From a virus (lineage: Duplodnaviria > Heunggongvirae > Uroviricota > Caudoviricetes): a stretch of 7,889 nt of DNA. The stretch covers positions 1 through 7,889 of IMG/VR virus record IMGVR_UViG_2778261509_000002; one strand, written 5' to 3'. Numbering within the stretch: the first letter of the stretch is position 1; the number at the start of each line of letters is the position of its first letter. The notes beneath the pieces are model-generated. The model searched no databases. It had not been told where the DNA came from and was given only the letters and a program-made list of their open reading frames with translations. The position numbers and the translations under genes were made by a program. Below are positions 1 to 7,889 of the stretch, one piece after another.

Positions 1-384
1 ATTGGCGGCAACCCGGAAACCGCCATGATAATTGGCAGCCTGTGGAGTGATGCCAGTCCGGCCCCCGGCAAAAGCCCGAAAGAAATCGTGGTCAGCGCGC
101 CGGACGGCGCGGTGTTCCGCTACGACGCGGACGCAGGCGCGCTGAGCGCCAGCGGCATGAAAACAGCCACCCTGCAGGCATCCGTCAGCGTGACACTGGA
201 CGCGCCCGTCGTGGAATGCACAGACCTTCTGAGAACAGCGACGCTTGACGTCACAAAAGGGGGAAAGATGAGCGGCAATATCACGCACAGCGGCGGCGAT
301 TTCACCTCAAACGGCATCACAGTGCATACGCATAAACACGGTGGCGTTAAAGGTGGCAGCGATTCGACAGGAGGCCCGCAGTGA
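1..384 (+). CDS. V: Baseplate central spike protein, P2 gpV-like (5'-truncated by window edge; C-terminal part only)
   Basis: Frame of the listed ORF 25..384 is open back to position 1 (IGGNPETAM...), so the gene starts upstream of the window. C-terminus carries an HTHKH motif typical of the HxH apex of gpV/gp5-type spikes. Position immediately upstream of W-J-I-H matches P2 order. Stop TGA 382-384 overlaps the W start. Confidence 0.8.
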   Translation: MGGNPETAMIIGSLWSDASPAPGKSPKEIVVSAPDGAVFRYDADAGALSASGMKTATLQASVSVTLDAPVVECTDLLRTATLDVTKGGKMSGNITHSGGDFTSNGITVHTHKHGGVKGGSDSTGGPQ

Positions 385-731
385 CAACCCGCTACACAGG
401 AATGAACCCGGACGGGACGGGAAACCTGAACGATATGGAGCACCTGAAACAGTCAGTCAGGGACATCCTGATCACCCCGCTGGCAAGCCGGGTTATGCGA
501 CGGGAATATGGCAGCCTTGTGCCTGATTTAATTGACGAACCCATGAATAACACCACGCGTCTGCAATGCATGAGTGCTGCCGTGATTGCGCTGACACGAT
601 GGGAACCCCGCATTGCCCTGGATGCCATCGACGTTGTCTGGAAGGCAGGAGGCCGCGCCGGGGTGACGCTGTCGGGCACTGTCATGCAGACCATGCAGAA
701 TGTTGAATTAACCATCACGCTAAGGGAGTAA
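381..731 (+). CDS. W: Baseplate assembly protein W (P2 gpW / T4 gp25-like)
   Basis: 116-aa ORF starting at GTG 381, preceded by AGGAGG at 369-374. GTGA overlap with the V stop suggests translational coupling. Size and sequence character (MTTRYTGMN..., RVMRREYGS) fit the gpW family as recalled. Synteny V-W-J-I. Confidence 0.85.
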   Translation: MTTRYTGMNPDGTGNLNDMEHLKQSVRDILITPLASRVMRREYGSLVPDLIDEPMNNTTRLQCMSAAVIALTRWEPRIALDAIDVVWKAGGRAGVTLSGTVMQTMQNVELTITLRE

Positions 732-734
732 ATC

Positions 735-1631
735 ATGCCCGCCGTTGACCTTTCACAGTTACCGGACCCCGCCATCATCGCGGAGCCTGACTTTGAGGCA
801 ATTCTGGCTGACACAAAGGCCATGATGATTGCGGCTTATCCCGCCGAACAGCGTGAAGCCGTCTCCGCCGCGCTGGAGCTGGAATCGGAACCCCTGAACG
901 TTATCGCTCAAACCATGTCGTTTCGTGAAATGCTGTTACGCCAGCGGGTTAACGAGGGCGCACGCGCCTGCATGTTGAGCCACAGCACCGGAACAGACCT
1001 GGACAACCTCGCGGGCAATATGAACACAAAGCGCCTGGTTATCACTCCGGCAACGGATACCACCGACGCGGTGATGGAAAGCGACACCTCGCTGAGACTG
1101 CGGGCGCAACGGGCGTACGACGGCCTGAGTGTTGCTGGCCCGTCAGGTGCATACGAGTATTTTGCCCGCAGCGCCAGCGGTCTGGTGCGTGATGCGCGGG
1201 CTATCAGTCCGTCTCCGGCAAATGTGACGGTTTCCATCCTGTCCACTGAAGGCGACGGCACAGCAACGGAGGCGTTGCTTAATACCGTTCGCGCCGTTCT
1301 GAATGCAGAGGATACCCGCCCGGTGGCCGACCGCCTGACCGTACAGAGTGCCAGAATCGTGACATGGCGGCTGAATGCAAAACTGTACTTTTACCCCGGC
1401 CCGGAATCCGAACCTATTCTGGCCGCGGCTGAATCGTCGTTCAGGAAGTGGCTGGCTGAGCAGGGGCTTATCGGTCAGGACGTGGCGTTGTCCGCCATTG
1501 CTGCCGCACTGCATGTGCACGGTGTGCAACGCGTGGAGATAACCGAACCCACACAGAATATGGCCATCAGCGACATACAGGCGGCGCGCTGTGAGTCGTT
1601 CACCATCAGCGAAGGTGGGCGCAATGAGTAA
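735..1631 (+). CDS. J: Baseplate assembly protein J (P2 gpJ-like wedge protein)
   Basis: 298-aa ORF with ATG 735 preceded by AAGGGAG at 722-728. Conserved stretches recalled from P2 gpJ (LESEPL, RQRVNE, GLSVAG, RPVADRVTVQSA, LY.YPGPESEPI, HVHGVQRVE). 3' end overlaps the I start in ATGAGTAA. Confidence 0.9.
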   Translation: MPAVDLSQLPDPAIIAEPDFEAILADTKAMMIAAYPAEQREAVSAALELESEPLNVIAQTMSFREMLLRQRVNEGARACMLSHSTGTDLDNLAGNMNTKRLVITPATDTTDAVMESDTSLRLRAQRAYDGLSVAGPSGAYEYFARSASGLVRDARAISPSPANVTVSILSTEGDGTATEALLNTVRAVLNAEDTRPVADRLTVQSARIVTWRLNAKLYFYPGPESEPILAAAESSFRKWLAEQGLIGQDVALSAIAAALHVHGVQRVEITEPTQNMAISDIQAARCESFTISEGGRNE

Positions 1632-2154
1632 TTCACTGTTACCACCATCAGCCAGCAGTTTCATGCGTTGTGCCGAAGCTGTCGGAACGCGCATTACAGA
1701 CATCCCGGTAGACCTCAACACGCTGTGGTCGCCGGACACCTGCCCGGTGCACCTGCTGCCTTATCTCGCCTGGGCATTTTCCGTTGACCGTTGGGATCGC
1801 AACTGGCCGGAAGAGGCAAAACGACAGGTGATTCGTGATGCATGGCTGATACACCGACACAAAGGGACCATCAGCGCACTGCGCAGGGCCATTGAGCCGC
1901 TGGGATACCTCATTCGCGTGTCTGAGTGGTGGGAGTTCGGCGGAGAACCGGGAACATTTACCGTTGAAGTCGGCACACTGGACAGTGGCGTGACGGAGGA
2001 AATGTATCTGGAAATGGAGCGGTTGATTGCTGATGCCCGTCCGGTCAGCCGCCACATGACAGGGCTGAATATCATTCAGGAAATTCCGGGGGATATTTTT
2101 GCAGCGGCGGCAACTTATGACGGTGAAGTTATTACCATTTATCCGGACGATTAA
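1624..2154 (+). CDS. I: Tail protein I (P2 gpI-like baseplate protein)
   Basis: The track ORF begins at 1591, but the internal ATG at 1624 (MSNSLLPP...) overlaps the J stop as ATGAGTAA, as in P2. The protein has the gpI hallmark LAWAFSVDRWD and EMERLIADA. Start choice 1624 versus 1591 is uncertain. Confidence 0.85.
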   Translation: MSNSLLPPSASSFMRCAEAVGTRITDIPVDLNTLWSPDTCPVHLLPYLAWAFSVDRWDRNWPEEAKRQVIRDAWLIHRHKGTISALRRAIEPLGYLIRVSEWWEFGGEPGTFTVEVGTLDSGVTEEMYLEMERLIADARPVSRHMTGLNIIQEIPGDIFAAAATYDGEVITIYPDD

Positions 2155-2156
2155 GC

Positions 2157-4451
2157 ATGAGTACCACAACACGAAAATTTAAAACCGTTATCACCGATAC
2201 AGGTGCCAAAAAATTAGCTCAGGCAGCCGCGCCAGATGGTAAGCCTGTTCGCCTGACTCATATGGCCGTGGGCGACGGTGGCGGCACGTTGCCCACACCA
2301 GACAGTAAGCAGACCCGTCTGGTGCATGAGGTGTGGCGACACACAGTTAATCGCGTCATCCTGGACGCAACACATCAGAACCGCATTATTGCGGAGCTGG
2401 TTATTCCTCCTGAAACGGGCGGATTCTGGATCCGGGAAATTGGTGTATTTGATGAGCACGGCGATTTAATCGCGGTGGGCAATACTGCCGAAAGTTACAA
2501 GCCAGCCGTTGCTGAAGGGTCCGGTCGTGCACAAACATTTCGCACCATTCTGACCGTATCCAGCACGGCCACCGTGGCGCTTACCGTGGATAACACCATG
2601 GTGATGGCCACAGTGGATTACGTGGATGACAAACTGAAAGAGCATGAACAGTCACGACGTCACCCGGACGCCTCGCTGACCGCAAAAGGCTTTGTTCAAC
2701 TCAGTAGCGCCACTAACAGCGTGTCTGAAACGCAGGCTGCAACGCCGAAAGCGGTTAAGGCCGCATATGACCTGGCTAACGGAAAATATACCGCTCAGGA
2801 CGCCACGACGGCACGAAAAGGCCTTGTCCAGCTCAGTAGCGCCACCAACAGCACGTCTGAAACGCAGGCTGCAACGCCGAAAGCAGTAAAGGCCGCGTAT
2901 GACCTTGCTAACGCAAAATATACCGCTCAGGACGCCACGACGGCACAAAAAGGGATAGTCCAGCTCAGTAGTGCCACCAACAGCACGTCTGAAACACTGG
3001 CCGCGACATCGAAAGCGGTTAAGGCGGTAATGGATGAAACGAACAAGAAAGCGCCCTTAAACAGTCCTGCGTTGACCGGAACGCCAACAACGCCAACTGC
3101 GCGACAGGGAACGAATAATACCCAAATCGCAAGCACGGCTTTCGTTATGGCTGCGATTGCCGCCCTTGTAGATTCGTCACCTGACGCACTGAATACGCTG
3201 AACGAGTTAGCGGCGGCGCTGGGAAACGACCCGAATTTTGCGACCACCATGACTAACGCGCTTGCGGGTAAGCAACCGAAAGATGCCACCCTGACGGCGC
3301 TGGCCGGGCTTGCTACTGCGGCAGACAAGTTTCCGTATTTTACGGGGAATGATGTCGCCAGCCTGGCAACCCTGACAAAAGTCGGGCGGGATATTCTTGC
3401 GAAATCGACCGTTGCTGCCGTTATCGAATACCTCGGTTTACAGGAAACGGTAAACAGGGCTGGTAACGCCGTGCAAAAAAATGGCGATACCTTGTCCGGC
3501 GGGCTTACTTTTGAAAACGACTCAATCCTTGCCTGGATTCGAAATACTGACTGGGCGAAGATTGGATTTAAAAATGATGCCGATGGTGACACTGATTCAT
3601 ACATGTGGTTTGAAACAGGCGACAACGGCAATGAATATTTCAAATGGAGAAGCAAACAAAGCACCACAACAAAAGACCTGATGAATCTTAAATGGGATGC
3701 TTTGTATGTTCTTGTTAAAGCTCTTTTCAGCAGTGAAGTAAAAATATCGACAGTCAATGCACTGAGGATATTTAATTCATCTTTTGGTGCCATTTTTCGC
3801 CGTTCTGAAGAATGCCTGCATATCATCCCTACACGAGAGAATGAGGGGGAAAATGGTGATATAGGGCCACTACGTCCCTTTACGCTTAATCTCAGAACTG
3901 GCCGCATAACTATGGGGCATGGTCTGGATGTTACAGGAGATATAACAACTAACGCCTGGGTGTATGCAAACAGGTTTGCTATTAATAGTGGCTCAACCTC
4001 ATGGATTGATATGCGAAACCAGAATGTCATTTTTGGTAGAAACGCAGTATCAACAAGTTCTGCGCAGGCTTTGTTAAGACAAGACCATGCAGAACGCAAA
4101 TTTTTTGTCGGTGGACTTGGTAACTACCAGTTTGGTTTTTACATGATTAATAACTCAAGGACAGCCAATGGCACCGATGGTCAGGCGTACATGGACAATA
4201 ACGGTAACTGGCTTTGTGGCTCGCAAGTTATTCCTGGCAACTATGGCAATTTTGATTCCAGATATGTGAGAGATGTTCGCCTGGGTACGCGAGTTGTTCA
4301 ATTGATGGCGCGTGGTGGTCGTTATGAAAAAGCCGGACACGCAATTACCGGATTAAGAATCATTGGTGAAGTAGATGGCGATGATGAAGCCATCTTCAGG
4401 CCAATACAAAAATACATCAATGGCACATGGTATAACGTCGCACAGGTGTAA
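2157..4451 (+). CDS. H: Tail fibre protein (P2 gpH-like); constant N-terminal part (aa 1 to about 426) fused in this orientation to a P2-H-like receptor-binding C-terminal part
   Basis: 764-aa ORF starting 2 nt after the I stop. N-terminus (TVITDTGAKKLAQA..., IAELVIPPE.GGFW.RE.G, TVMATVDYVDDK) is gpH-like. Contains VQLSSATNSTSET..TPKAVK fibre-shaft repeats. C-terminus ends ...INGTWYNVAQV. Crossover site L lies in-frame at codons of about 422-430 (VIEYLGLQE). Confidence 0.9.
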   Translation: MSTTTRKFKTVITDTGAKKLAQAAAPDGKPVRLTHMAVGDGGGTLPTPDSKQTRLVHEVWRHTVNRVILDATHQNRIIAELVIPPETGGFWIREIGVFDEHGDLIAVGNTAESYKPAVAEGSGRAQTFRTILTVSSTATVALTVDNTMVMATVDYVDDKLKEHEQSRRHPDASLTAKGFVQLSSATNSVSETQAATPKAVKAAYDLANGKYTAQDATTARKGLVQLSSATNSTSETQAATPKAVKAAYDLANAKYTAQDATTAQKGIVQLSSATNSTSETLAATSKAVKAVMDETNKKAPLNSPALTGTPTTPTARQGTNNTQIASTAFVMAAIAALVDSSPDALNTLNELAAALGNDPNFATTMTNALAGKQPKDATLTALAGLATAADKFPYFTGNDVASLATLTKVGRDILAKSTVAAVIEYLGLQETVNRAGNAVQKNGDTLSGGLTFENDSILAWIRNTDWAKIGFKNDADGDTDSYMWFETGDNGNEYFKWRSKQSTTTKDLMNLKWDALYVLVKALFSSEVKISTVNALRIFNSSFGAIFRRSEECLHIIPTRENEGENGDIGPLRPFTLNLRTGRITMGHGLDVTGDITTNAWVYANRFAINSGSTSWIDMRNQNVIFGRNAVSTSSAQALLRQDHAERKFFVGGLGNYQFGFYMINNSRTANGTDGQAYMDNNGNWLCGSQVIPGNYGNFDSRYVRDVRLGTRVVQLMARGGRYEKAGHAITGLRIIGEVDGDDEAIFRPIQKYINGTWYNVAQV
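2685..3030. repeat. In-frame 132-bp (44-codon) direct tandem repeat inside H: two full copies plus a diverged partial third copy
   Basis: The motif aaaagg...cagctcagtagcgcc recurs at 2684, 2816 and 2948 (period 132 nt). Protein copies are KGFVQLSSATNSVSETQAATPKAVKAAYDLANGKYTAQDATTAR, KGLVQLSSATNSTSETQAATPKAVKAAYDLANAKYTAQDATTAQ and KGIVQLSSATNSTSETLAATSKAVKAV.... The right boundary is approximate. Confidence 0.9.
3421..3446. repeat. Crossover site L for the DNA invertase (gix/pix/cix/hix-like 26-bp site), embedded in the H coding sequence
   Basis: TTATCGAATACC-TC-GGTTTACAGGAA: two 12-bp half-sites around a 2-bp core. Closely matches the gix sequence as recalled (TTATCCAAAACC TC GGTTTACAGGAA). 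It is the inverted partner of site R at 6492-6517. Confidence 0.8.
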
Positions 4452-4982
4452 ATGATGCAGCATTTAAAAAATATTAAGTCTGGAAATCCTAAAACGAAAG
4501 AACAATATCAGCTAACAAAGAATTTTGATGTTATCTGGTTATGGTCCGAAGACGATAAAAACTGGTATGAGGAAGTGAAAAACTTTCAGCCAGACACAAT
4601 AAAGATTGTTTACGATGCAAATAATATTATTGTCGCCATCACTAAAGATGCCTCCACGCTTAACCCTGAAGGTTTTAGCGTCGTTGAGGTTCCTGATATT
4701 ACAGCCAACCGCCGCGCTGATGATTCAGGAAAGTGGATGTTTAAGGATGGAGCTGTAGTTAAACGGATTTATACGGCAGACGAACAGCAACAACAAGGCG
4801 AATCACAAAAGGCCGCATTGCTTTCCGAAGCTGAATCAGTCATCCAGCCGCTGGAACGCGCTGTCAGGCTGAATATGGCAACAGACGAGGAACGCACACG
4901 ACTGGAAGCATGGGAACGCTACAGTGTTCTGGTCAGCCGTGTGGATACGGCAAATCCTGAATGGCCACAAAAGCCTGAATAA
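4452..4982 (+). CDS. G: Tail fibre assembly chaperone (P2 gpG / Mu U / Tfa family), expressed partner of the current fibre C-terminus
   Basis: 176-aa ORF whose ATG directly abuts the H stop (TAAATG). Size and position match Tfa proteins. N-terminal two-thirds closely similar to the convergent second copy at 5011-5544. Confidence 0.85.
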
Positions 4983-4987
4983 AAATT

Positions 4988-5007
4988 AAGGCCCGCGATC
5001 GGGCCTT
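4988..5007. terminator. Hairpin between convergent tfa genes; likely intrinsic terminator (U-tract best on the - strand)
   Basis: Perfect 8-bp stem aaggcccg / cgggcctt with 4-nt loop cgat. On the - strand the stem is followed by AATTTTTATT. On the + strand the downstream tract (GTCTCATTC) is weaker. Confidence 0.6.
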
Positions 5008-5010
5008 GTC

Positions 5011-5544
5011 TCATTCAGGTTGTTCGGGAAATGTTACTGGCAGGCTGGAGGTGTCTGTAGATTCGACTTTCTGCGCATAGAGCATCCACTCGGTTAATTT
5101 TTGTTTATTCTCGTCGGAAATGATGCCCAGCCGTAGCTGTGAGTCCCATAGCTGGGTTTTATCCCTAACGAGCTGTAGCAGGCTTTGCTTTTCATTTTCC
5201 GCCTGCTGCCTCTGCTCTTCCTCGGTATAAGTTCGCTTTACCACTACGCCATCTTTGAACATCCATTTACCAGAAATATCAGCCCGGCGATTTGCTGTAA
5301 TATCAGGAACCTCAACGACGCTTGCGCCTTCTGGATTAATTGCTGAAACATCCTTTTCAATACAAATAATAACGTTGTTGTGGTCATAGACCATTTTCAA
5401 CGTATCAGGCTGAAAGTTCTTTTGTTCCTCATACCAGTTTTTCCCATCCTCTGTATAAAGCCATTTGATGTTAAATTGTTTCGTTAGCTGGTATTGCTCT
5501 TTTGTTTTAGGGTTGCCAGCAGTAATATTTTTTAAATGCATCAT
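5011..5544 (-). CDS. Alternative tail fibre assembly chaperone (Tfa', Mu U'-like), cognate to the silent fibre cassette
   Basis: 177-aa ORF on the - strand with GGGGAG 9 nt upstream of its ATG. N-terminal about 110 aa parallel the + strand Tfa ([21 protein letters not shown]..., [30 protein letters not shown]); the C-terminal third diverges. Confidence 0.8.
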
Positions 5545-5546
5545 AA

Positions 5547-6500
5547 TTAAATACTCCCCGCGTTATACCACGTCCCATTAATGCAATACTGAATTGGCCT
5601 TGCCTGAGTTGTATCAATTAATTCATCACGGTTTCCGTTAACTGAACCCGTAACGACATAACCTGACCTGTCAGACCAGCCGGGACCATTCCATGTCTGA
5701 ACAGATGACAGACCGCCAAGGCGAATACCTGTAATAAACCTTGAGTTACATTCTGCCTGCGTGTATGCACCAACATCTCCCGCAGAGGGTTTGCGGGTCG
5801 TGGTGTAAAACTCTGACCAGTTAGCCTCAAATCCATAACCATCACGCGCTGAACGATAAAAAATACCGCCGTTCCTGTAATTCACGCGGAACTGTACAGC
5901 AGGGCAGCTCCCCGTATTCATATTGAAGTGGAGGATTAATGTCGATGCACCGCTGATATCTGCATCATAAACACCGCTATTCCAGTTCCAGCCAACAGCT
6001 TTATCATTTGCAACCCTGCTTCCTGTTTGCCCTAAAGCAAATGCAGGCTGCTGGTTTTTCGTGTTGTAGTCTCGTCGCCAGCCGGGGGCATAAGCATCAC
6101 CATGATCAATATAAGTGAATTGAGCGTTAGTAATTCCGCCACCGCTGGACGTGCTCGGCGTGGTAACGCGTATGGTCATTGCGCCGCGGGTTCCCATAAC
6201 CTCAATCACGGCTCCGGCAAGGCAGATATTTCCACAACCGGTATCCGTAATAACCCTGTTTCTGGCATAGGACCATGACCCTTTACACATCCAGTATGGA
6301 TGTCGGAAAGCTCCGTTATTCTCCAGCCACGAGATAAATGCAACTGTCGACCATGCACCTTGTGAACCATCGATATCAGTCTGACCGCTAAATGCACGAC
6401 AGGCCCCTGTGTTTTGTATGAATTTATCTTTATTCGGAATATCTGCACCGTTCTGGTTTTTCTGTAATGCGCCAGAAGCCTGATTTACCGTTTCCTGCAA
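5547..6500 (-). CDS. Promoterless alternative tail-fibre C-terminal cassette (H'v, Mu S'v-like); would be fused to the H constant region after inversion
   Basis: Open frame on the - strand running from site R to a TAA 2 nt upstream of tfa'. Its first codons ([15 protein letters not shown]) parallel H residues just after site L (LQETVNRAGNAVQKN). It ends ...[11 protein letters not shown], like H. There is no ATG or RBS; the track's M is a TTG inside the crossover site. Confidence 0.75.
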
Positions 6501-6517
6501 ACCGAGGTTTTAGATAA
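6492..6517. repeat. Crossover site R for the DNA invertase (gix/pix-like), inverted relative to site L
   Basis: TTCCTGCAAACC-GA-GGTTTTAGATAA. Its reverse complement TTATCTAAAACC-TC-GGTTTGCAGGAA matches site L at all but about 3 positions and keeps the same 2-bp core. Confidence 0.8.
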
Positions 6518-6571
6518 TGGCCGTTTCTGACCTGCATGGCATGATTTACGCTTTTGGACGGGAGATTCAGC

Positions 6572-7159
6572 GTGCTGATTGGCTATGTAAGGGTATCAAC
6601 AAATGACCAGAATACAGACCTGCAACGAAACGCTCTTGTTTGTGCAGGATGTGAACAAATATTTGAAGATAAATTAAGCGGGACAAAGACAGACCGACCG
6701 GGATTAAAACGCGCTTTAAAGCGCCTTCAACAAGGTGACACGCTGGTTGTCTGGAAACTGGATCGCCTCGGGCGAAGCATGAAACATCTGATTTCTCTCG
6801 TCGGGGAACTACGGGAGCGAGGGATTAATTTTCGCAGTCTGACCGACAGCATAGATACATCTTCTCCAATGGGGCGTTTTTTCTTCCACGTGATGGGTGC
6901 CCTGGCTGAAATGGAACGTGAATTAATTGTTGAACGTACACTGGCCGGACTGGCAGCAGCGCGCGCACGGGGGCGCACAGGCGGACGTCGCCCGAAGCTG
7001 ACAAAAGAACAGCATGAGCAAATAGCAAGGCTGATTAAAAACGGTCACGACAGAAAACAACTGGCAATAATTTACGGCATTGGTACATCGACGATTTATC
7101 GTTACCACCCCGCAGGAGAATCAAGCGGAACAATAGAGAAGAGTCAGAAAACAAAATAA
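6572..7159 (+). CDS. Serine site-specific DNA invertase (Gin/Pin/Cin/Hin family)
   Basis: N-terminus from GTG 6572 reads MLIGYVRVSTNDQNTDLQRNAL..., the family signature with the catalytic Ser in RVSTNDQ. Further conserved blocks: GDTLVVWKLDRLGRSMKHL, INFRSLTDSIDTSSPMGRFFFHVMGALAEMERELIVERT, GRTGGRRPKLT and a C-terminal HTH (IYGIGTSTIYRY). GGGAGA lies 7 nt upstream of the GTG. The track's TTG start at 6554 adds 6 non-conserved residues and is probably not used. Confidence 0.95.
   Translation: MLIGYVRVSTNDQNTDLQRNALVCAGCEQIFEDKLSGTKTDRPGLKRALKRLQQGDTLVVWKLDRLGRSMKHLISLVGELRERGINFRSLTDSIDTSSPMGRFFFHVMGALAEMERELIVERTLAGLAAARARGRTGGRRPKLTKEQHEQIARLIKNGHDRKQLAIIYGIGTSTIYRYHPAGESSGTIEKSQKTK
6593..6655. 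promoter_or_regulatory. Putative Fis-dependent recombinational enhancer (sis-like) inside the 5' end of the invertase gene
   Basis: Two G-N13-C 15-mers, GTATCAACAAATGAC (6593-6607) and GTGCAGGATGTGAAC (6641-6655), with centres 48 bp apart. Position corresponds to the enhancer within the 5' coding region of hin/gin as recalled. Inference from family knowledge only. Confidence 0.4.
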
Positions 7160-7186
7160 CCGCTAATCTGACCATTAGCGGTTTTT
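7159..7186. terminator. Bidirectional intrinsic terminator between the convergent invertase and gpU-like genes
   Basis: 9-bp stem accgctaat / attagcggt with 6-nt loop ctgacc, followed by TTTTTGTGTT on the + strand. On the - strand it is followed by TTATTTTGTTTT. Confidence 0.7.
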
Positions 7187-7194
7187 GTGTTAAA

Positions 7195-7689
7195 TCAGAA
7201 CAGCCCTTTAACGGAGCTGGCCGCGCTGTTAAGAGATGATGTCACCTTATCTTTGAAGCCGGACAGCATATCGCTGAACGATGAGGATTGCAGGCGCTCC
7301 CGCAAATCCTCATCACAGCGTTCAAGGGTCAGTGAAAATTCTATCTTTTTCGCCTTACCGTAGCGATCAAACTCGGAACGGGTCGTATTCGTTCCGGTCA
7401 GGACATACATGCCGTAAATCTGCCCGACGCCATCAATCAAAGGCCAGGGTCGTCCTGTATACGCCTGCGTGGTCAGCAGCGACAGCGATACTTCGCCACC
7501 TGTAATTTCAGGATAAAGCACACCAGAAAGAACGATGCGATCATCACCTGCACCGATATACTGCCAGCTTGCTGAACGGTTAACGCGTTCATTTTTCACA
7601 TGCCGCCAGCTTTTGTTTTGCTGTAACTGCTGATGCGGCAGCGTGCGCAGCTCAAAAACAAACATGCCGTAGATCATCATCATGGCCAT
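7195..7689 (-). CDS. Phage tail protein, P2 gpU-like (family assignment from recalled motif pattern)
   Basis: 164-aa ORF on the - strand. The pattern GMFVFELRT...SWRH..N.RV.R...WQY.G.G.D.I.LSGVLYPE.TGG...L.......G.PWPL.DG.G...GMYV......T.SEF...G...KIEFSL.LER resembles the GpU family as I remember it. GAGGAG sits 8 nt upstream of the second in-frame ATG (7683), so the true start may be 7683 rather than 7689. Confidence 0.55.
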   Translation of the reverse strand: MAMMMIYGMFVFELRTLPHQQLQQNKSWRHVKNERVNRSASWQYIGAGDDRIVLSGVLYPEITGGEVSLSLLTTQAYTGRPWPLIDGVGQIYGMYVLTGTNTTRSEFDRYGKAKKIEFSLTLERCDEDLRERLQSSSFSDMLSGFKDKVTSSLNSAASSVKGLF

Positions 7690-7695
7690 GACTCC

Positions 7696-7889
7696 TCAAT
7701 CTTTATCGTAAAAACTGCCACGCCCGGCACGGGCGCGCCGTTCCATTTCTGCCCTGACCATTTCACCGACCAGTTTCGCCAGTTCGCGGGGATTCTGTGT
7801 AACAACGTTATGCAGATGAACATGAATTTCACCGCCAAATCCGGAGGCAACAGGCTCCCGGTTACGGGAAGTTGCAGGAACTGATGCCA
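7696..7889 (-). CDS. 3' end of an upstream - strand phage gene (possibly tape-measure gpT-like by position); start lies outside the window
   Basis: Manual translation of the - strand gives an open frame ending ...GEIHVHLHNVVTQNPRELAKLVGEMVRAEMERRARAGRGSFYDKD with stop TGA at 7698-7696, 6 nt before the gpU-like start. Function is inferred only from its position upstream of the gpU-like gene. Confidence 0.3.
   Translation of the reverse strand, partial: ASVPATSRNREPVASGFGGEIHVHLHNVVTQNPRELAKLVGEMVRAEMERRARAGRGSFYDKD

Follow-up and report, generated by a model that had tools for sequence, protein, structure and literature searches.

The 7,889-nucleotide (nt) stretch of viral DNA analyzed here (positions 1 to 7,889 of IMG/VR record IMGVR_UViG_2778261509_000002, Caudoviricetes; referred to below as the window) very probably carries an active host-range inversion switch of the Gin type (Din family), located in the tail operon of a P88-type, P2-like Escherichia coli prophage. 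The window has the anatomy of such a switch, the constant part of its tail fiber gene H can be joined in frame to either of two C-termini, its enzyme and sites belong to the families known from phage Mu, and precise inversion of the segment between the sites is seen in near-identical copies of the locus. We regard the switch as almost certainly functional. As a discovery, however, the locus carries small weight, because its mechanism, enzyme family, and prophage family have all been described before.

Two gix-type sites bracket a 3.07-kb segment

A preliminary description of the window had proposed two 26-bp inverted sites with a shared 2-bp core, and both were found where it had placed them (Table 1). 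Site L and the reverse complement of site R agree at 23 of 26 positions, and their central dinucleotides, TC and GA, are compatible in inverted orientation. As in systems of the Din family, they are imperfect palindromes in inverted orientation with identical 2-bp cores. For comparison, Mu gixL (TTATCCAAAACCTCGGTTTACAGGAA) and gixR (TTCCTGTAAACCGAGGTTTTGGATAA) were taken directly from the Mu record, and each site of the window differs from its Mu counterpart at two positions. Site L is also the exact point at which the nucleotide homology to Mu sets in.

When the window was searched with a degenerate 26-mer pattern derived from both sites, only sites L and R were retrieved, even with up to 3 mismatches allowed; no match was expected by chance (200 shuffles). 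Because there is no third site in the window, the arrangement is a two-state switch, and a shufflon of more than two sites was rejected. The sites are embedded in a longer imperfect inverted repeat (3417-3481 and 6457-6521; 65 nt, 77% identity), to which we return below.

The constant part of gene H is in frame with either cassette

The 3.07-kb segment between the sites contains an expressed fiber C-terminus with its chaperone and, on the opposite strand, an alternative pair, as the open reading frames, the Pfam domains, and the homology to Mu S, U, S', and U' all indicate. In the present orientation, H encodes 764 amino acids (aa; 2157-4451) and is 66% identical to P2 H. The recombination core sits in H codon L426, in agreement with the fusion point of about codon 426 proposed earlier. 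The silent fiber C-terminus is an open reading frame of 317 codons (5547-6500) that lacks a proper start of its own and is in frame from site R. When 3433-6505 is inverted in silico, an uninterrupted fiber of 744 aa is formed, consisting of H residues 1 to 426, a glycine, and the silent cassette, and its stop directly precedes the start of the second chaperone. The predicted in-frame fusion therefore stands, and the length of about 743 aa given for it is corrected to 744. The chaperone start adjoins the fiber stop in both states.

The alternative pair had also been called promoterless. A sigma-70 scan, which does not cover P2-type late promoters, detected nothing resembling a promoter on the minus strand of the segment and lends this part of the description weak support.

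Two further features of the gene were observed. The constant part of H contains three tandem fiber repeats of 132 nt (44 aa) at 2666-3061 (100%, 86%, and 67% identical to the reference copy); alignments with E. coli ETEC4090 and EC361 show additional copies of this repeat, and the annotated fiber length across the P88-type relatives that were fetched ranges from 700 to 832 aa. The segment also holds internal inverted repeats (4451-4811 and 5188-5548, 361 nt, 70%; 4398-4437 and 5561-5600, 40 nt, 80%), which reflect paralogy between the two chaperone genes and between the two fiber cassettes at their extreme C-termini; in none of the relatives examined did the exchange point fall in these repeats. 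An NCBIfam scan of the fiber parts and chaperones returned nothing for the fiber proteins.

The adjoining gene encodes a Gin-type invertase

As previously described, a serine invertase gene lies directly outside site R and ends at 7159. Its product has a catalytic domain (Pfam Resolvase, E = 2e-50) and a C-terminal helix-turn-helix (HTH) domain (HTH_7, E = 7e-14), and its N-terminus, MLIGYVRVST, aligns residue for residue with Gin (4m6f), including the nucleophile Ser9, a role established for this residue in Gin (PMC3575834). We consider GTG at 6572, as in the P88 annotation and the Gin alignment, the likely start rather than TTG at 6554. The protein is identical to the P88 invertase at 194 of 195 positions, to Mu Gin at 155, and to P7 Cin at 136. 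NCBIfam recombinase models matched it only far under their cutoffs.

The preliminary description had called for protein comparisons of the invertase and both fiber C-termini, and had named a resolvase-type enzyme with an unrelated site as an outcome that would overturn its reading. In the comparisons, the crystal-structure sequences of Gin (4m6f and 3uj3) were retrieved at E = 3e-100 (336 bits), against 6e-32 (114 bits) for gamma-delta resolvase, and the expressed fiber C-terminus was 66% identical to Mu S and the silent one 89% to Mu S'. Given the higher scores for Gin and the gix identity of the sites, a resolvase with an unrelated site was rejected.

The gene probably also harbors the recombinational enhancer. 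Its first 135 nt match Mu gin at 133 positions, and the P7 record annotates the enhancer at cin +19 to +86, a stretch equivalent to 6590-6657 of the window, where we presume the enhancer to lie. A loose regular expression for Fis sites gave a single, uninformative match over 6500-6800, at 6665.

The segment is inverted precisely at the core in near-identical copies

Both orientations occur among E. coli genomes. The genome of E. coli EC361 is colinear at 96.3% with positions 2684-7889 of the window after in-silico inversion, and the block inverted relative to the native window spans 3417-6521; ETEC4090 behaves in the same way. Among complete E. coli genomes that carry the whole locus (at least 80% of the query covered in one place), 133 have the orientation of the window and 137 the flipped one. 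Queries of 600 nt spanning the junctions recovered 356 native and 108 flipped junctions, counts that include other elements sharing the constant region of the fiber.

Further evidence comes from two sets of closely related isolates. Between strain 2020N21-110 and its derivatives -15 and -24, the flanks are 100% identical and the segment alone is inverted. If the 2020N21-110 sequence is inverted exactly at the TC/GA core, the product agrees with isolate -15 over 11,598 nt with 0 mismatches, and the comparison bounds the exchange point to the interval from -1 to +22 nt around the core. Likewise, 2022S01-140 inverted at the core reproduces 2022S01-140-18 with 0 mismatches over 10,739 nt (bounds, -3 to +22 nt). 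The copies that flip are 95 to 96% identical to the window in nucleotide sequence; the invertase of these lineages is identical to that of the window at 191 of 195 positions, and site L of the 2022S01-140 pair is identical at all 26. In the prophage of enteropathogenic E. coli (EPEC) E2348/69, which has the same backbone as the window, coexisting inversion variants were detected by PCR and by deep sequencing and whole-genome sequencing (Goldberg et al. 2014, PMC4272514).

One alternative, to which we assign very little probability, is that the two orientations arise through general recombination by RecA between the arms of the imperfect 65-nt inverted repeat and that the adjoining invertase is incidental. 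The repeats do extend beyond the 26-bp sites, and the clonal pairs bound the exchange only to an interval of about 24 to 26 nt. However, that interval always includes the core, with its left bound 1 to 3 nt away, and the longest uninterrupted identity between the arms is about 25 to 38 nt, a poor substrate for RecA. The far longer internal repeat of 361 nt (70%) is the exchange point in none of the six relatives that were compared in detail. Moreover, the approximately 1:1 ratio of orientations over 270 genomes, together with flips in two independent derivative series, indicates a high rate of the kind typical of invertases, and for the homologous Mu sites and enzyme the reaction is established biochemically (PMC3575834).

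Several observations weigh against an active switch in the window itself. At position 20, within its inner half-site, site R has a G that is absent from Mu, from P88, and from both flipping lineages. The C-terminal DNA-binding domain of the invertase departs from Gin, with about 24 of its last 60 residues identical. The enhancer is presumed from its homology. The flips were observed in near-identical copies, from which flipping in the window's own strain would follow by inference, and the parent and derivative status of the clonal isolates is drawn from strain names, genomes within 10 bp of each other, and 100% identical flanks, and not from a publication.

The copy in the window could instead be a relic, with its parts intact but flipping at no meaningful rate, so that the fiber is fixed in the S-like state as in P2; the cause might be, for example, weak translation or transcription of the GTG-initiated invertase gene, the divergence of its DNA-binding domain, or the A-to-G change in site R. 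Such a frozen state does exist. The H gene of P2 (NC_001895) contains a solitary gix-like site (TTATCGAATATCTCGGTTTACAGGAA; 25/26 to site L; about codon 375, 4858-4883 of the stretch examined) that occupies the equivalent codon and has neither a partner site nor an invertase to go with it; in the P2 regions examined, no second gix-like site was found, the best other match being 17/26. In the window, by contrast, the five open reading frames that make up the switch are all intact, decay is absent from the silent cassette, and the invertase is nearly identical to those of P88 and of the lineages that flip. Furthermore, the G variant of site R also occurs in flipped EC361, at its site L. At the inner half-sites, the window has A at L and G at R, EC361 has G at L and A at R, and the outer half-sites are unmoved. 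This swap fits an exchange at the center of the site and is what would be expected had the variant itself passed through an inversion. We therefore regard a frozen switch as improbable, although less so than the RecA-dependent exchange considered above, and retain an active, invertase-driven switch as the best explanation.

A proposed mechanism and its bearing on host range

For the active switch, we propose the following sequence of events. H would be transcribed from the late promoter of the V operon, upstream of the window. In the present orientation, H codons 1 to 426 continue into the Mu S-like C-terminus, giving the 764-aa fiber, followed by the chaperone of U/G type. By analogy with related systems, an invertase dimer would bind each of sites L and R, an enhancer bound by Fis near the start of the invertase coding sequence would be needed for synapsis, and the synaptic tetramer would cut both strands of each site at the 2-bp TC/GA core through phosphoserine linkages. 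Subunit rotation by 180 degrees and religation would then invert the 3.07 kb. Dimer binding, Fis-enhancer synapsis, cleavage at the core, and rotation are established for the Gin and Hin systems (PMC3575834, PMC3798978); for the window, we infer the dependence on Fis and the enhancer, the cleavage chemistry, and the receptor recognized by each tip. After inversion, the same 426 codons would lead into the Mu S'-like C-terminus (744 aa), with the U'-type chaperone directly after it.

Given two states of H, we propose that a population of lysogens releases two types of virion with different receptor-binding tips. A role of the switch in host range is supported indirectly, by analogy with P88: residues 716-746 of the P88 fiber determine host range (PMC5285337), and these residues fall inside the invertible cassette. 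In that host-range paper, inversion and the invertase are never mentioned (the string "invert" occurs 0 times), and its determinants were mapped within the cassette with no reference to the switch. Where P88-type prophages or their fibers are used in host-range engineering, lysates would be mixtures of two fiber types.

Identity of the element and layout of the window

The window is 95.5% identical to Escherichia phage P88 (NC_026014/KP063541) over 100% of its length. P88 is an inducible P2-like coliphage, classified in its record under Xuanwuvirus, Peduoviridae, and its GenBank record already annotates a DNA invertase, two tail fiber proteins, and two assembly proteins in the same arrangement. 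Open reading frames and Pfam domains identify the plus strand of the window as a P2-type baseplate and fiber operon, V-W-J-I-H-chaperone (Table 1). The V-W-J-I-H-G module named in the preliminary description is thus confirmed, with identities to the P2 proteins of 42, 44, 54, 61, 66, and 93%, in that order. V is cut by the left edge of the window, and the P88 annotation places its start upstream.

The element is not a member of Peduovirus, the genus of P2 proper. In that genus the F operon (FI FII E T U D) follows G on the same strand, with fun(Z) or another cargo between. Both the window and P88 instead have gpU and the remaining tail genes beyond the invertase in reverse orientation, whereas in P2 they are co-directional; we therefore assign the element to Xuanwuvirus. 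In P88-type phages, gpU, the tape measure, E/E', tube, and sheath genes run opposite to V-W-J-I-H-G, and the point at which the two tail modules converge holds the invertase gene and a bidirectional hairpin. A tailocin of the carotovoricin-like kind was rejected because P88 is a complete inducible phage in which head genes adjoin the module (PMC5285337).

TABLE 1 Features of the window, in order of position
Feature	Position	Strand	Evidence and remarks
Gene V, 3' part (baseplate spike)	25-384	+	Pfam Phage_spike and GpV Apex; 42% aa identity to P2 V residues 80-210
Gene W (baseplate wedge)	381-731	+	Pfam GPW_gp25; 44% aa identity to P2 W
Gene J (baseplate)	735-1631	+	Pfam Baseplate_J; 54% aa identity to P2 J
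Gene I (tail protein)	1624-2154	+	ATG at 1624, overlaps end of J; Pfam Tail_P2_I, E = 1e-50; 61% aa identity to P2 I over 175 aa
Gene H, constant part (codons 1-426)	2157-3434	+	Pfam Phage_tail_fib N-terminal domain and Phage_fiber_2 repeats
Site L, gix-type	3421-3446	+	TTATCGAATACCTCGGTTTACAGGAA; core TC at 3433-3434; inside the H frame; 24/26 to Mu gixL; same as P88 site
Expressed variable fiber C-terminus (Mu S-like; P7 Sv'-like)	3435-4451	+	Pfam Gp34_trimer; 66% aa identity to Mu S 167-502
Chaperone of expressed cassette (Mu U/P2 G type)	4452-4982	+	Pfam Caudo_TAP; aa identity 94% to Mu U, 93% to P2 G
Terminator-like GC-rich palindromic hairpin between the convergent chaperone genes	4988-5007		Terminator scan
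Silent alternative chaperone (Mu U' type)	5011-5544	-	Pfam Caudo_TAP; 98% aa identity to Mu U'
Silent alternative fiber C-terminus (Mu S' type)	5547-6503	-	89% aa identity to C-terminal part of Mu S'
Site R, gix-type	6492-6517	-	TTCCTGCAAACCGAGGTTTTAGATAA; core GA at 6504-6505 (+ strand); 24/26 to Mu gixR
Serine DNA invertase, Gin-type	6572-7159	+	195 aa; GTG start; Ser9 in YVRVST; Pfam Resolvase and HTH_7
Presumed Fis-dependent recombinational enhancer, 5' end of invertase gene	6590-6657		Homology only
Bidirectional terminator-like hairpin between the invertase gene and convergent gpU	7158-7183		Inverted repeat and terminator scan, both strands
gpU tail gene, first gene seen of the opposite-strand tail module	7195-7689	-	Pfam Phage_P2_GpU; 46% aa identity to P2 U; P88 gene order; context only, outside the switch

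Mosaicism of the switch

The invertible segment and the invertase gene are mosaic. Against Mu, nucleotide identity is 95.7% over 3421-3721 and 88% over 4062-6960, with a divergent block at about 3720-4060. Within the invertase gene, the part up to about 6950 (residues 1 to about 130, comprising the catalytic domain and the presumed enhancer) is 98% and then 79% identical to Mu gin, and the protein is almost identical to Gin over these residues. The 3' end, which encodes the HTH, is about 50% identical to Mu and 85 to 89% identical to the invertase of the P88-type prophage of EPEC E2348/69, which accompanies Pin-type cassettes. This pattern suggests a recombination joint inside the invertase gene. 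Positions 3783-4783 of the window are 100% identical to the C segment of P7, and most of the rest of 3583-6180 is 94 to 100% identical; the expressed C-terminus is 97 to 100% identical to it from about 3583. P88 differs more from the window within the segment (80 to 90% identity over 3800-4400, 68% around 6200-6400). Because the segment is closer to P7 than to P88 while the flanks are near-P88, a recent cassette exchange with a P1/P7-type element is indicated.

Horizontal exchange of such fiber modules has long been proposed. We tentatively raise the possibility, which we hold to be less likely than its converse, that a G-type unit moves as a whole among Mu, P1/P7, and P88-type phages, comprising both sites, the two fiber cassettes between them, and, from the invertase gene, the 5' two-thirds together with the enhancer. 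One joint would lie exactly at the gix site of the fiber gene and the other within the conserved sequence coding for the catalytic domain. The mosaic pattern fits this scenario: Mu homology runs from 3421 to about 6950, a 1-kb stretch matches P7 at 100%, and the EPEC prophage has the same HTH domain. If the cassette is mobile in this way, chimeric invertases should occur in which a Gin catalytic domain is combined with a DNA-binding domain specific to the phage backbone, and the solitary gix site of P2 would be a scar or a docking point.

Annotation and assembly at the locus

The PGAP/RefSeq annotation labels the silent fiber C-terminus as a pseudogene ([quoted passage not shown]). This label is a systematic annotation artifact of the switch and not a sign of gene decay. 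In 2020N21-110-24 (NZ_CM125672.1), every gene in the invertible segment is annotated as "frameshifted" (6763-8933 of the stretch examined), and comparison with the parent shows 33 gap openings in the 3.1-kb segment, with essentially perfect flanks. These gaps look like consensus noise from the assembly of a culture of mixed orientation. Annotators should expect "partial" or "frameshifted" fiber pseudogenes, as well as assembly noise, at P88-type switch loci.

Two other kinds of record were observed. The fiber junction occurs in small records labeled as plasmids, NZ_CP035755.1 (25 kb), NZ_OZ282456.1 (46 kb), NZ_CP098182.1 (52 kb), and NZ_CP158145.1 (48 kb), the first of which carries the whole locus; these may be excised phage circles or phage-plasmids. 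O145 RM8843-C1 and NZ_OZ282453.1 have two P88-type loci each, one per orientation.

Comparison with known systems

The class of the switch is that of the Mu G segment, as proposed in the preliminary description. With gix-type sites, a Gin-like enzyme, and cassettes 66 to 98% identical to those of Mu at the amino acid level, the window has the architecture of the Mu system (Gin, gix, and the sis enhancer, the last by homology) in homologous DNA: 3421 to about 6950 aligns with the G segment and the 5' two-thirds of gin at about 88 to 96% nucleotide identity. The window differs from Mu in that the constant part of its fiber and the surrounding tail module are P2-type, in that the last 60 or so residues of its invertase (the HTH) are not Gin-like but match those of other P88-type prophages, and in that no com/mom genes lie downstream. 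The C segment of P1 and P7 (Cin, cix) follows the same logic of a constant part and alternative variable parts with chaperones, and part of the P7 segment aligns with positions 3483-6473 of the window at 95.7% identity, which rises to 100% for more than 1 kb. However, the P7 segment is about 4 kb long, its cin gene lies on the other side, and the cix core is AA/TT, whereas the sites of the window are gix-type.

P2 shares the tail module, and its H and G proteins are 66% and 93% identical to H and the expressed chaperone of the window. The preliminary description is right that there is no invertible segment in P2. The phage has no invertase, no alternative cassette, and no site R; fun(Z) occupies the position of the invertase, and the F operon runs in the direction of V-G. 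The switch in P2 thus seems to be frozen in the "G(+)" state. The T-variant of site L seen in P2 is also present in the 2020N21-110 lineage, which flips.

The preliminary description had singled out the P2-type setting as the distinctive feature of this switch. That claim does not hold, since P88, the EPEC prophages (PMC4272514), Fels-2 (PMC7953296), and a hotspot survey (bioRxiv 10.1101/2024.10.15.618418) precede it. In Fels-2, a P2-like prophage of Salmonella that we liken to the window by its published description, inversion of a tail fiber gene beside the fin invertase has been reported (PMC7953296). In P2-like phages, according to the survey, the Z/fun hotspot can hold DNA invertases whose neighboring genes are inverted (bioRxiv 10.1101/2024.10.15.618418).

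The prophage of EPEC E2348/69 (1.885-1.900 Mb) has V-W-J-I-H, cassettes, a recombinase, and an opposite-strand gpU and tape measure, as in the window, to which it is 94.5% identical in nucleotide sequence over V-I and 88% over the invertase-gpU region. Its cassettes are shorter and Pin-type, and its three inverted repeats, with pix-like sites, give four variants; two overlapping inversions are listed for it, 1891695-1893703 and 1892127-1893703 (PMC4272514). In contrast, the segment in the window is G-type and 3.07 kb long, and its two sites allow two variants. P88 is essentially the same element as that of the window: the gene order and site L are identical, and the difference between the two is concentrated in the switch, with flanks 97.5 to 99.6% identical and the invertible segment 91%.

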